NCBI GenBank assembly: GCA_034520565.1
Contig: JAXHNL010000002.1
Coordinates: 1,216,001 to 1,280,000 of the forward strand
Length of the DNA stretch: 64,000 bases
Reading direction: 5' to 3'
From: Halodesulfurarchaeum sp.
GTDB lineage: Archaea > Halobacteriota > Halobacteria > Halobacteriales > Halobacteriaceae
Shown here: piece after piece, positions 29,238 to 45,247 of the stretch
How positions within the stretch are numbered: position 1 is the first letter of the stretch
Layout: every line of letters starts with the position of its first letter
The notes under the pieces: model-generated
What the model was told of the DNA's origin: nothing
The model's input: the letters and a program-made list of their open reading frames with translations, nothing else
Database searches by the model: none
Made by a program: the position numbers and the translations under genes

Positions 29238-29738
29238 ATGGACGTGGCGCTCGGGGGGACGTTCGACCCCATTCACGACGGACACCGCAAACTTTTTCGT
29301 CGTGGGTTCGAACTCGGCGATCTTACTGTTGGATTGACCAGCGACGAACTGGCCCCCAAGACCCGTCACGAGCCGCGGTACGTCCGACCGTTCGAGGAGC
29401 GCAAGGCCGACCTGGAGGCCGAATTGGCTGCCCTTGCCCCGGAATATGATCGCGAGTTCGAGGTCCGACGCCTCGAGAAGCCGACCGGTATCGCGGTCGA
29501 ACCCCAGTACGAGGCCCTCGTGGTGACGCCGGAAACCAGGGAGGGCGGGCACCGGATCAACGAGATTCGCCAGGACCGGGATCTCGAACCGCTGCAGATC
29601 GTCGTGGTCGAGCGGCTTCTGGCCGAGGACGGGGACATCATCTCAAGCACCCGGATCGTCCGCGGCGAGATCGACGAACACGGTACGCTCACACCGGATC
29701 GGACGGGCCGGGAAAACGACGCCTCTGCGGTCAGGTAA
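29238..29738 (+). CDS. coaD: Phosphopantetheine adenylyltransferase
   Basis: GGTFDPIHDGH and ISSTRI motifs. Confidence 0.9.
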   Translation: MDVALGGTFDPIHDGHRKLFRRGFELGDLTVGLTSDELAPKTRHEPRYVRPFEERKADLEAELAALAPEYDREFEVRRLEKPTGIAVEPQYEALVVTPETREGGHRINEIRQDRDLEPLQIVVVERLLAEDGDIISSTRIVRGEIDEHGTLTPDRTGRENDASAVR

Positions 29739-29771
29739 GTCGGCGGGTTTCGGATTCGGCCGCTTTCAGGA

Positions 29772-30080
29772 CTACCAGGACGGCGTTTCGAATCCGGCTT
29801 TTTCGAGCAGCGGCCGCCAGCGGGACTGGATGGTGAGTCGGGAGACGTCGGCCGCATCGGCGACTGCCGTTTGGGATCGTTGGTCGCCGGCGATCAGTGC
29901 GCCGGCGTAGATGCTCGTCGCGAGGAGCGCGTCTTTCGACCGTTCCTCGACGGGGAGTTGGGAGAGAAACAGTTCCCGGGCGGCCGAACGAGCAGTGGTG
30001 TCCAAGTCGAGTCGTTCCGAGACCCGGTCGAGAGCGGCGAGGGTCGATTGTTCGGCCCGCTCGGTCCCGGCACGATACAT
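29772..30080 (-). CDS. Single cyclin-fold TFB-like protein
   Basis: LLATSIY and SQTAVADAADVSRLTI resemble a TFIIB repeat. Confidence 0.7.
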   Translation of the reverse strand: MYRAGTERAEQSTLAALDRVSERLDLDTTARSAARELFLSQLPVEERSKDALLATSIYAGALIAGDQRSQTAVADAADVSRLTIQSRWRPLLEKAGFETPSW

Positions 30081-30167: not shown

Positions 30168-30250
30168 GCGCGGGTAGCCAAGTGGTCAACGGCGCAGCGC
30201 TTAGGACGCTGTGGGGTAGCCCTCCGCAGGTTCGAATCCTGTCCCGCGCA
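30168..30250 (+). tRNA. tRNA-Leu (anticodon TAG)
   Basis: GCGCGGG/CCCGCGC acceptor stem, CAGCG-CTTAGGA-CGCTG anticodon arm, long variable arm, GGTTCGAATCC. Confidence 0.95.
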
Positions 30251-30699
30251 GTGCGAGACCCGACCAAAGGGAGGGTCTCGGTAAAGGCGAACGGCGAGGA
30301 ACGAGCCGTGAGCCATGAGCGAGAAAACGAGTGAACGAGCAGGCACGGATTCGAGCCCTGGAAACCGAGCGAAGCGAGGTTTCCTCCGGTTCGAATCCTG
30401 TCCCGCGCACTTTTCAGCGACACTCACCGGCGAGGGACCCCCCGGTGTCCCGAGCCGTGAGATCGCGGTTGTAAATGCGTTCACCGGATTCGAATCAGGG
30501 AAGAGCTTTGCTCTGACCGTGGTTCGAATCCTGTCCCGCGCAGTGCGAGACCCGACCAAAGGGAGGGTCTCGGTAAAGGCGAACGGCGAGGAACGAGCCG
30601 TGAGCCATGAGCGAGAAAACGAGTGAACGAGCAGGCACGGATTCGAGCCCTGGAAATCGACCGAAGGGAGATTTCCTCCGGTTCGAATCCTGTCCCGCG
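30229..30699 (+). repeat. Tandem array of tRNA-Leu 3'-end copies with structured modules (A-B-A')
   Basis: GGTTCGAATCCTGTCCCGCG(CA) at 30229, 30388, 30521 and 30680 (periods 159/133/159); A and A' differ internally at only 4 nt. Confidence 0.95.
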
Positions 30700-30709
30700 G
30701 TATCAGTCG

Positions 30710-31276
30710 TTATTTCCACTTGATCGAACAGCCGCGTGACGGAATCTCCTCGACGTCGACCGGTTCGCCCGCGAGCACCGCGTCAATGGCCTGCCGCATC
30801 TCGAAGCCGGGTTCTCCGCTCGGTTCAGCGTCCGGGCTCTGGGCGTCGTCCAGCCGCCCGTGGTACACGAGCGTGAACTCGCCGTCGGTGCCATCGAAGA
30901 GGAACGGATCGGGCGTGCACGCTGCTCCGTAGGCCTCGGCCACTGCCTGTGACCCGTCCCGAAGGTAGGCGTCGTAGGCAACCGTCCCGTCCGCGACCAG
31001 TTCCCGCATTCGCTCGAACGAATCGTCGGGGTACTCCTCGGCGTCGTTGGGATTGATCCCGACGACTGCGACGTCGTCGTAGTCCGTGGCGATGTCGTTC
31101 AGCGTCTCGAACTTCGACTTCGCGTACGGACAGTGGTTGCAGGTGAACACGACGAGGAGGGCGTCGTACTCACCGAAATCCGACAGCGAGTACGTTTTGT
31201 CGTCGGTCCCCGGGAGTTCGAAGTCCGGTGCCGGCGTGTCGTGTTCGAGTTCGTCGGTCGAAGATTCGACAACCAT
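30710..31276 (-). CDS. Thioredoxin-fold AhpC/TSA family protein
   Basis: APDFELP, CNHCPY, ACTPD, YHGRLDD and GCSIKWK motifs. Confidence 0.9.
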   Translation of the reverse strand: MVVESSTDELEHDTPAPDFELPGTDDKTYSLSDFGEYDALLVVFTCNHCPYAKSKFETLNDIATDYDDVAVVGINPNDAEEYPDDSFERMRELVADGTVAYDAYLRDGSQAVAEAYGAACTPDPFLFDGTDGEFTLVYHGRLDDAQSPDAEPSGEPGFEMRQAIDAVLAGEPVDVEEIPSRGCSIKWK

Positions 31277-44775: not shown

Positions 44776-44892
44776 TCGGACTTCGAAGCTACTGAACGTC
44801 GGACGACGCTGTTTTTGCGTTTTTCGGGGAGCTGAAGGTCCTCCTGAACAATGCGGTCGAGCCGACTCTGCTCCAGTGGGGTGACGGAATAG

Positions 44893-45184
44893 CGGTGCGG
44901 AGGGGATTTGAACCACGAGGACTTCGCTCAACCAGGTTTCGCTCGTCCTCTGGGCTCAAATCCCTCGTCCCCGTTCAAACGAAGACGGCGCGGTTCCTGA
45001 CGGAACACGCGCCTGGTGTGTTAGAAGCGGTGAGGAGGGGATTTGAACCAGAGGAAGACTCGCTCCCGTTGGTCGCTCGTCTTCCAGGGCTCAAATCCCT
45101 CGTCTCCGTTCAAACGTAGACGGCGCGGTTCCTGACGGAACACGCGCCTGGTGTGTTAGAAGCGGTGAGGAGGGGATTTGAACC
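44893..45184 (-). repeat. Tandem array of tRNA-Ser 3'-end copies with two 135-bp structured modules
   Basis: CGGTG(A/C)GGAGGGGATTTGAACC at 44893, 45028 and 45163 (period 135). Confidence 0.95.
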
Positions 45185-45247
45185 CCTGAGGCTACAATAG
45201 CCACCTGCTCTCAAGGCAGGCGCGTTGGGCCGCTTCGCTACCTCACC
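45163..45247 (-). tRNA. tRNA-Ser (anticodon TGA)
   Basis: GGTGAGG/CCTCACC acceptor stem, CCTGC-CTTGAGA-GCAGG anticodon arm, long variable arm, GGTTCAAATCC, G discriminator. Confidence 0.93.

Follow-up and report, generated by a model that had tools for sequence, protein, structure and literature searches.

Tandem hairpin modules behind a tRNA-Leu gene of Halodesulfurarchaeum belong to a tRNA-anchored family spread through the class Halobacteria and are candidate integrative cassettes

The tRNA-Leu(TAG) gene of Halodesulfurarchaeum sp. (assembly GCA_034520565.1, contig JAXHNL010000002.1) is followed by a tandem array of three short modules, here called A, B and A', each of which ends in a hairpin joined to a copy of the tRNA 3' end. 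The array was studied in a window of 64,000 nucleotides (nt), positions 1,216,001 to 1,280,000 of the forward strand of the contig, and the coordinates given below are those of the window unless a contig is named. An earlier note on this stretch, made from its letters, had drawn attention to the repeated tRNA end and to paired differences between A and A'. What that note had not seen is that the modules are no local curiosity: they are members of a family that is found genome-wide in this organism and class-wide among its relatives. The array is composed as follows.

30168–30250, plus strand: tRNA-Leu(TAG) gene (ARAGORN; Rfam RF00005 at 57.7 bits, E 3.5e-11)
30229–30250, plus strand: repeat copy 1, the last 22 nt of tRNA-Leu(TAG)
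30251–30409, plus strand: module A, 159 nt, made up of a variable body (with a small hairpin at 30254–30280), a type-1 hairpin and a tRNA-tail copy
30347–30398, plus strand: type-1 hairpin of A (fold z −5.26; pattern matches; covariation), consisting of an anti-T-loop arm (30347–30357), an internal loop, a stem (30360–30366 with 30378–30384), an apex (30367–30377, containing GCGAAGC) and a T-loop arm (30388–30398)
30388–30409, plus strand: repeat copy 2, 22 nt, a complete tRNA tail with a T run directly 3' of it
30410–30542, plus strand: module B, 133 nt (fold z −6.18), with a 5' hairpin at about 30417–30466 and a type-2 hairpin at 30486–30531
30521–30542, plus strand: repeat copy 3, the end of module B
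30543–30699, plus strand: module A', 157 nt, with the same body as A and a type-1 hairpin at 30639–30690 that has an alternative apex (containing CCGAAGG)
30680–30699, plus strand: repeat copy 4, the end of A', 2 nt short

The sequence GGTTCGAATCCTGTCCCGCG starts at 30229, 30388, 30521 and 30680, which gives periods of 159, 133 and 159. These four matches compare with 0.03 expected by chance, and none of 100 shuffles of the window reached four. When the units 30229–30407 and 30521–30699 (179 nt each) are set against each other, 175 of the 179 positions are identical, and the four differences (C30365/T30657, G30369/C30661, C30375/G30667 and G30379/A30671) make up exactly two pairs of the predicted hairpin, 30365-30379 and 30369-30375. 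The probability that four random changes all land in the 25-nt hairpin is about 3.8e-4. Each of the three modules has a far better fold than its dinucleotide shuffles, with z scores from −3.8 to −6.2 and none of 200 shuffles folding as well, and module B follows the plan of A with another central hairpin, type 2. The repeat periods, the positions of the four bases, the two base-pair swaps that they form and the shared plan of module B were all described in the earlier note, and they stand, the last of them borne out by the folding analysis that the note had called for.

An assembly artefact was considered as well, either a tandem collapse of both allelic versions of a single module or a duplication by slippage. 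Short-read contigs of metagenome run X1, which may be the sample from which the genome was assembled, match 30388–30542, 30521–30690 and 30661–31147 without a difference. The sample thus contains, each as a separate sequence, module B together with the repeats on either side of it, A' bearing its variant bases, and the junction of A' with the unique flank. Comparable arrays are moreover present at other tRNAs of this genome and in complete congener genomes, such as that of G001 with its three modules. Among the reads and contigs listed none covers the array from end to end, which is what an artefact has in its favour, and X1 cover is missing for 30284–30340 within module A; we nevertheless regard the chance of an artefact as close to negligible, in line with the earlier note, which had found the array hard to explain by simple slippage or duplication in the assembly.

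The modules are built to a common plan. Directly after the tRNA discriminator each starts with a variable body of small hairpins, usually 40–200 nt, and it ends in a long hairpin formed by an anti-T-loop arm of 11–12 nt, a small internal loop with a central stem-loop, and a copy of the T loop that runs on into the tRNA-specific last ~11–13 nt. Every module is bounded by a tRNA-tail copy of 20–23 nt, and the tRNA itself is intact. The central stem-loop is of type 1 in A and A' and of type 2 in B. Terminal inverted repeats are lacking. The one inverted repeat of a module sits within its right end, there is no relationship among left ends, and the duplication measures 20–23 nt. Near-identical hairpins are found behind different tRNAs, namely tRNA-Arg(CCG), tRNA-Ser(TGA) and tRNA-Arg(TCG).

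Templating of the left arm from each tRNA, such that it would complement all of the tRNA-specific tail, was suggested by the tRNA-Gly(GCC), tRNA-Val(GAC) and tRNA-Leu(GAG) loci and was rejected as a general rule: across 52 type-1 hairpins, pairing beyond the T loop equals that of the shuffled-partner control save at the second position (0.67 versus 0.45). In the same 52 hairpins the acceptor part of the tail copy pairs with upstream sequence no better than in this control. A search of Rfam 15 at E values up to 1 gave the true tRNA as the sole match in the array; a weak match to rpfG (23.6 bits against a gathering threshold of 75.9) lies outside it. As there is neither a paired acceptor stem nor a tRNA match in Rfam, the module is not a tRNA-like processing signal. 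Signals of that kind are the t-elements, which occur upstream of the Haloferax 5S rRNA and in plant mitochondria. The modules share with t-elements that tRNA-derived sequence stands beside a stable RNA gene, and the earlier note had envisaged tRNase Z cleavage after each tail copy, but they differ in lacking a paired acceptor stem and a tRNA covariance-model score, and in having the T-loop copy locked in a long helix with no T arm. A bulge-helix-bulge intron and a permuted or split tRNA were dropped because the internal loop is of 2x3 nt and has no opposed 3-nt bulges. Nor is the locus a CRISPR array, since its repeat is the tRNA tail, the would-be spacers are homologous hairpin modules, and Cas1 is encoded 765 kb away.

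Further members of the family occur throughout the genome, which comprises 1.86 Mb in 2 contigs and is 80.7% complete. Tail copies were identified with the T loop as anchor, at most one mismatch in the next 12 nt, and within 500 nt downstream of the tRNA; 5 of the 48 tRNA calls have no recognisable T loop and were skipped, leaving 43 that were testable. One to three downstream copies are present at 18 of these 43, and they amount to 29 copies in total. A whole-genome search with module A matched the trailers of other tRNAs, including that of tRNA-Ser(TGA), which heads a second array in the window.

44892–45247, minus strand: tRNA-Ser(TGA) gene (45162–45247), then two 135-nt modules (45027–45161 and 44892–45026)

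Both of these modules have a type-1 hairpin and a tRNA-Ser tail copy. It is mainly in the central stem-loop that the two hairpins diverge, and there is one mismatch in the second module's tail copy. A structural scan detected 23 distinct places in the genome with an anti-T-loop/T-loop hairpin, 22 of which either follow a same-strand tRNA at a distance of 43–390 nt or sit where two genomic islands have their junctions; the remaining one looks like a chance match.

Patterns for the two hairpin types were also searched for in relatives and in a sample of the class Halobacteria, each with a reversed pattern as control.

Type 1, relatives: 10 of 41 genomes (7 of 11 congeners); reversed-pattern control 0
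Type 1, class sample: 72 of 401 genomes, 27 of 90 genera; reversed-pattern control 0
Type 2, class sample: 93 of 401 genomes, 42 of 90 genera; reversed-pattern control 0

The hairpins almost always lie 36–200 nt behind a same-strand tRNA whose tail they copy. A tRNA on the same strand is present upstream at 38 of 42 loci fetched from the class sample, and in 28 of these 38 the copy matches the tail of its own tRNA at 10 or more of the 12 positions after the T loop. The tRNAs concerned include those for Gln, Val, Leu, Asp, Ser, Thr, Pro, Lys, Met, Ala, Phe, Arg, Ile and Glu. Of the four loci without a tRNA call, two were followed up: one is an intron-bearing tRNA that ARAGORN had overlooked, the other a tandem module. 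In the accessible literature, including text of PMC7002104, PMC5861418, PMC8371274, PMC3119063 and PMC7237163, no description of such modules was found, and the family is provisionally considered undescribed.

The structure of the hairpin is constrained, as the earlier note had supposed when it spoke of selection on secondary structure. For an alignment of 14 members of 50 nt from 13 genomes, whose arms and four stem pairs were set by the search pattern, so that the inner positions alone are free evidence, 99.2% of the alignment cells pair as compared to 93.6% after shuffling, and the covariation score is 0.207 as compared to 0.093 (0 of 500 shuffles as high in either case). Pairing fell to 26–55% when partners were slid by one to three columns. 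In the central helix both sides have changed in three stem pairs. The variable positions of the arms give the same picture for the 52 distinct type-1 hairpins. In the first variable arm pair, which sets a left pyrimidine against the variable purine of the T loop, T-A occurs 24 times, C-G 23 times, T.G five times and C.A not at all; in the second, with a left purine opposite T, G.T occurs 28 times and A-T 24 times; and all 52 hairpins show pairing at the first free stem pair (G-C 45, A-T 6, G-T 1). The excess of G.T over A.C points to the tRNA-sense strand as the one that folds, be it in the form of RNA or of single-stranded DNA.

The apices, GCGAAGC in A and CCGAAGG in A', conform to a family consensus N-C-GNA-G-N' with tandem G.A pairs flanking it, in which N and N' covary and all four bases are found at the middle loop position. 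According to the accessible part of a 2026 review (PMC13037366), the heptamers GCGAAGC and CCGAAGG are mini-hairpin DNA, extraordinarily stable as DNA and much less so as RNA, and mini-hairpin DNA occurs in single-strand initiation signals. The apices of A and A' are these very heptamers of the GCGNAGC/CCGAAGG type as set out there; they differ from the mini-hairpins of the review in that they cap longer helices with tandem G.A pairs and reside in tRNA trailers. The genome contains 38 mini-hairpins (apex GA-N-CGNAG-N'-GA) with a flanking stem of at least 4 bp as opposed to none for the reversed motif. Many of the 38 lie near tRNA genes by position, for example at 30367–30377 and 30659–30669 in the window.

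A fold on the tRNA-sense strand could also be that of a structured RNA element co-transcribed with the tRNA. The hairpin of the trailer would then sequester a second T loop and tail; its role could lie in forming the 3' end, in termination or in the processing of the tRNA precursor, or it could be a small RNA, and the copy would be functional and not the scar of an insertion. Such an element is compatible with the location of the hairpin on the tRNA strand 36–200 nt downstream, with the covariation and the strong asymmetry of G.U over A.C, with the conservation of the core sequence across 27–42 genera, and with module A, where no T run separates tRNA and hairpin and a T run follows copy 2. A precedent is provided by Haloferax volcanii, for which hairpins before termination sites are documented in the accessible text of PMC7237163. 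What makes this explanation unlikely in our view is that modules occur at some tRNAs only, that congeners differ in how many modules, and of which type, they carry at a given tRNA, and that arrays and split or decayed copies exist. In addition, the apices have C-GNA-G loops, a type that by the part of PMC13037366 referred to above is stable in DNA and poor in RNA, the acceptor part of the copy is on average unpaired upstream, and the modules match neither the tRNA model nor another Rfam family.

Variation among members and between species is extensive. Congener G011 has the apex allele of A' in its orthologous tRNA-Leu(TAG) module, the genome studied here has it again, shorter by one base, in its tRNA-Leu(GAG) module, and the allele of A is present in congeners G001, G009 and G010; the pool of variants envisaged in the earlier note thus exists. 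Since both alleles occur elsewhere and the bodies of A and A' are otherwise identical, the four differences represent replacement of one hairpin allele by another, and not point mutations in place. The differences that the earlier note called compensatory are therefore an exchange of alleles. Judged by their sequences, the bodies of A and A' appear to be recently duplicated or homogenised. The array may have come about by sequential acquisition, the route that had been suggested, or by unequal crossing-over or short-patch conversion between family members. Orthologous tRNA-Leu(TAG) loci in five congeners differ in the number of modules and in their mosaic composition.

G011, tRNA-Leu(TAG): module of 91 nt
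G001, tRNA-Leu(TAG): modules of 155, 146 and 98 nt
G010, tRNA-Leu(TAG): module of 150 nt plus a partial repeat
G008, tRNA-Leu(TAG): module of 105 nt
G007, tRNA-Leu(TAG): module of 138 nt

The module of G010 combines the body of the first module of G001 with the hairpin of its third. In another genus, tRNA-Val(TAC) loci carry one or two modules with recombinant bodies, and in three genomes the tail copy is split by a later hairpin insertion. A further genome has two small hairpins inside the tRNA-tail copy, and the nesting of hairpins in hairpins seems to be an ongoing process. Hairpins that split a tail copy were seen at L085 (G394 contig 2), L055, L064 and L072. Draft contigs of congeners often start or end inside modules (G003:C28:1-92, G011:C3:1-103, and C287 and C43 of G007), and modules probably break short-read assemblies at tRNA loci.

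Taken as a whole, the data lead us to propose, with a probability of roughly 0.45, that the array consists of three members of a family of small integrative cassettes that recombine at tRNA 3' ends throughout the haloarchaea. Duplication of the tail is a hallmark of insertion at tRNA genes, and species turnover, arrays, mosaicism, cargo and the use of module tails as attachment sites (the last two described below) fit cassettes. In this model a cassette would enter by site-specific recombination at the tRNA tail, leaving the tRNA intact and its tail duplicated, and arrays would build up because each insertion recreates the target. Unequal crossing-over and short-patch conversion between family members would then reshuffle the arrays, which may be how A and A' came to share a body and to differ in the hairpin allele. 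We infer that mobility is by recombination, that the hairpin acts as a folded single tRNA-sense strand and that the recombinase is supplied in trans.

The attL and attR sites of haloarchaea resemble the boundaries of the modules in that a direct repeat of the tRNA tail bounds the insert, the tRNA stays intact, and one tRNA can be occupied in tandem. The accessible text of PMC5861418 and PMC3119063 reports an SNJ2-type core of 14 bp and duplications of 22 nt and 43 nt at Haloquadratum prophages. It is the 22-nt case, in which the duplicated tRNA tail marks an integrase-mediated insertion as far as the available part of PMC3119063 tells, that the 20–23 nt of the modules come near. Unlike such inserts, the modules are 90–170 nt in length, contain no integrase and usually no gene, and number dozens per genome. 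The anti-T-loop hairpin beside the copy is likewise a difference, as it goes unmentioned in the accessible text of PMC3119063, PMC5861418 and PMC8371274; the term 'hairpin' has no match in that of PMC5861418, the SNJ2 integrase paper, or of PMC8371274, a review of archaeal tyrosine recombinases.

Three integrase-bearing islands lie at tRNAs of this genome, and islands use the tails of modules as attachment sites. On contig 2 at about 516872–532000 (locus L037 covers contig 2 518000–534000), two tandem islands of low GC content (38–50% versus ~65% in the flanks) follow an intron-bearing tRNA-Arg(TCT) in the order 9-kb island, core, module, 4.6-kb island, core, module. Each of the two ends with a tyrosine integrase gene, next to which come a 13-nt copy of the tRNA tail and then the module. 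Among the proteins encoded in them are an N6 DNA methylase, a PLD-like nuclease, an HD phosphohydrolase and a Csa3-like regulator. Behind tRNA-Arg(TCG) come first a module, then an 8-kb island and last a 13-nt core. Homologues of the integrase at 75–86% identity all come from named Halobacteria, and the sequencing runs that contain the stretch are hypersaline metagenomes. The host is accordingly a haloarchaeon, and none of these runs is on record as RNA. At 16 homologous integrase loci in named haloarchaea plus the 2 of this genome a separate 13-nt core is found ~55 nt after the integrase stop codon. Salinarchaeum laminariae R26 and Natrarchaeobius species are among the named haloarchaea that have modules. 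The possibility that the hairpin is part of attP of the adjacent integrase (contig 2, 525–531 kb) was rejected: with a separate core, and with a module at 9 of the 18 loci, the hairpin must lie outside the attP of the integrase, and the module is a tRNA-trailer feature that was displaced by integration.

These islands raise the alternative that the modules are what is left of decayed integrase-borne islands or proviruses, whose att-proximal arms were retained and then multiplied into arrays by unequal crossing-over between tails. All three intact integrase-bearing islands at tRNAs in this genome, though, end in the 13-nt core without a hairpin. Hairpin cores were found on no viral contig and module sequence on no phage or plasmid record searched, the core is conserved class-wide, and ~29 remnants per genome of a uniform ~90–170 nt, all with the same hairpin and none with gene fragments, are unlike the outcome of random decay. 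In favour of decay, tRNA-tail duplications of 13–43 nt mark the ends of haloarchaeal islands, three integrase-bearing islands do lie at tRNAs here, and repeat-mediated deletion is described for Haloquadratum in the accessible text of PMC3119063. On balance we consider such an origin unlikely, too.

Cargo was seen at tRNA-Gly(GCC). There, a module of 169 nt precedes a segment of ~1.7 kb with lower GC content (contig 2, 902283–903964, locus L098). The segment encodes a 385-amino acid (aa) Fic/DOC-HTH protein (Fic/DOC Pfam E 2.7e-16), contains no integrase, and terminates in a tail copy preceded by a hairpin, which is a homologue of the one in the 169-nt module. It would be a cassette with a gene as its cargo, or else DNA that was inserted later into a module already in place.

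Integron attC sites and attP of phage CTX are recombination sites that are folded from single-stranded DNA and have conserved arms. The modules are reminiscent of attC cassettes in several respects: a variable body is joined to a terminal imperfect inverted repeat with conserved arms, conserved pairing and a centre that varies in length and sequence; arrays grow from one primary site; and arrays occur without a neighbouring integrase, as do clusters of attC sites that lack one. Most of the evidence points to strand-specific folding of a single strand, and the apices are of the DNA type. Differences are that the primary site of the modules is the tRNA tail and not attI, that the junction repeat has 20–23 nt and not ~7, that the fold is on the tRNA-sense strand as judged from the G.T asymmetry, that bodies are almost all non-coding, that the hosts are archaea, that a tRNA gene forms the head of the array, and that no IntI-like gene is linked. 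By analogy it is tempting to speculate about a tRNA-anchored counterpart of the integron, a version of the cassette model that we rate as distinctly unlikely. The tRNA tail would be the primary recombination site, cassettes would end in a folded single-stranded hairpin site that mimics the duplex tail, and a tyrosine recombinase acting in trans would stack them; most cassettes would be empty, some would carry genes such as that for Fic, and their tails would be landing sites for islands.

The tail copy would have a different origin if the module were a non-autonomous transposable element that inserts by a long staggered cut around tRNA positions 61–73, with a target duplication like that of a casposase or Cas1. 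Its tRNA-specific 12–13 nt would be the target-site duplication, and the T-loop sequence would be the element's own. The 3' ends of tRNA genes are targets of casposons. Within the copy ~12–13 nt are indeed tRNA-specific, the T loop being common to all tRNAs and the element, and the near-identical hairpins behind tRNA-Arg(CCG), tRNA-Ser(TGA) and tRNA-Arg(TCG) would need no homology for their insertion, which recreates its target as in a repeat-spacer array. A Cas1 gene is also present in the genome, but it is a single one and 765 kb away from the array. It is located at contig 2 481594–482419 and presumably belongs to a CRISPR-Cas locus. Further, terminal inverted repeats and a conserved left end are lacking, and no gene for a Y1 transposase (RAYT or IS200-type) or a reverse transcriptase was found in this 80.7% complete genome; a search for Y2 transposases was blank here as well as in 14 of 14 control genomes and is thus uninformative on their absence. 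We therefore judge a transposable element to be very unlikely. Repetitive extragenic palindromes and bacterial interspersed mosaic elements (REP/BIME) and transposable elements of the miniature inverted-repeat type (MITEs) resemble the modules in being small multicopy intergenic hairpins with mosaic clusters and nested insertions, but the modules are tied to tRNA tails, possess neither terminal inverted repeats nor a short target duplication, and no Y1 gene was found in this genome.

Several observations weigh against integrative cassettes. The bodies are not homologous between loci, so that the hairpin alone is the conserved unit. Strand-specific G.T pairs and constant co-orientation with the tRNA are equally expected of an RNA element, and a run of four T within 25 nt, between tRNA and hairpin, is present in just 5 of the 38 class loci, which makes co-transcription with the tRNA plausible. 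No recombinase is linked to the modules; a tyrosine recombinase gene was found near neither of the two window arrays, matches to PF00589 being located elsewhere. Circular forms or empty sites were not seen among the short metagenome contigs, BLAST with modules A and B gave no match in 72,556 plasmids or 50,697 phage records, and the type-1 and type-2 hairpin cores had no match in the viral contig collection. Where integrases do occur, a module adjoins the integrase core at just 9 of 18 loci. Finally, the Fic segment is the sole case of cargo seen, and the other modules examined are non-coding.

If the modules are mobile cassettes, they would add to the mobile DNA of archaea a tRNA-targeted layer that is both new and very common, and they would multiply the attachment sites behind tRNA genes. 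This multiplication would explain why islands stack at tRNAs and is probably also why draft assemblies break there, and haloarchaeal genetics could gain an integration target in a compact, defined site of ~70 nt. In the case of RNA elements, the modules would be conserved and so far unrecognised structures of tRNA trailers in a model group of archaea. Either way, they provide a large natural set of covarying hairpins with which selection for DNA structure and for RNA structure can be compared.

Both arrays of the window are located between ordinary housekeeping genes, that of tRNA-Leu(TAG) having genes for a TFIIB-repeat protein and an AhpC/TSA protein as neighbours, and no open reading frame (ORF) lies inside the window modules. 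An identical unit of two hairpins stands in antisense orientation 100–400 nt behind two tRNAs of the genome, tRNA-Leu(CAA) and tRNA-Gly(TCC). Adjoining tRNA-Leu(TAG) in the window at 29366–30080 on the minus strand are two overlapping ORFs of 163 and 102 aa, the second of which has a TFIIB repeat; a TFB gene that is truncated or frameshifted could explain them. Relative to the window, a base is missing at 29641 in one contig of X2.

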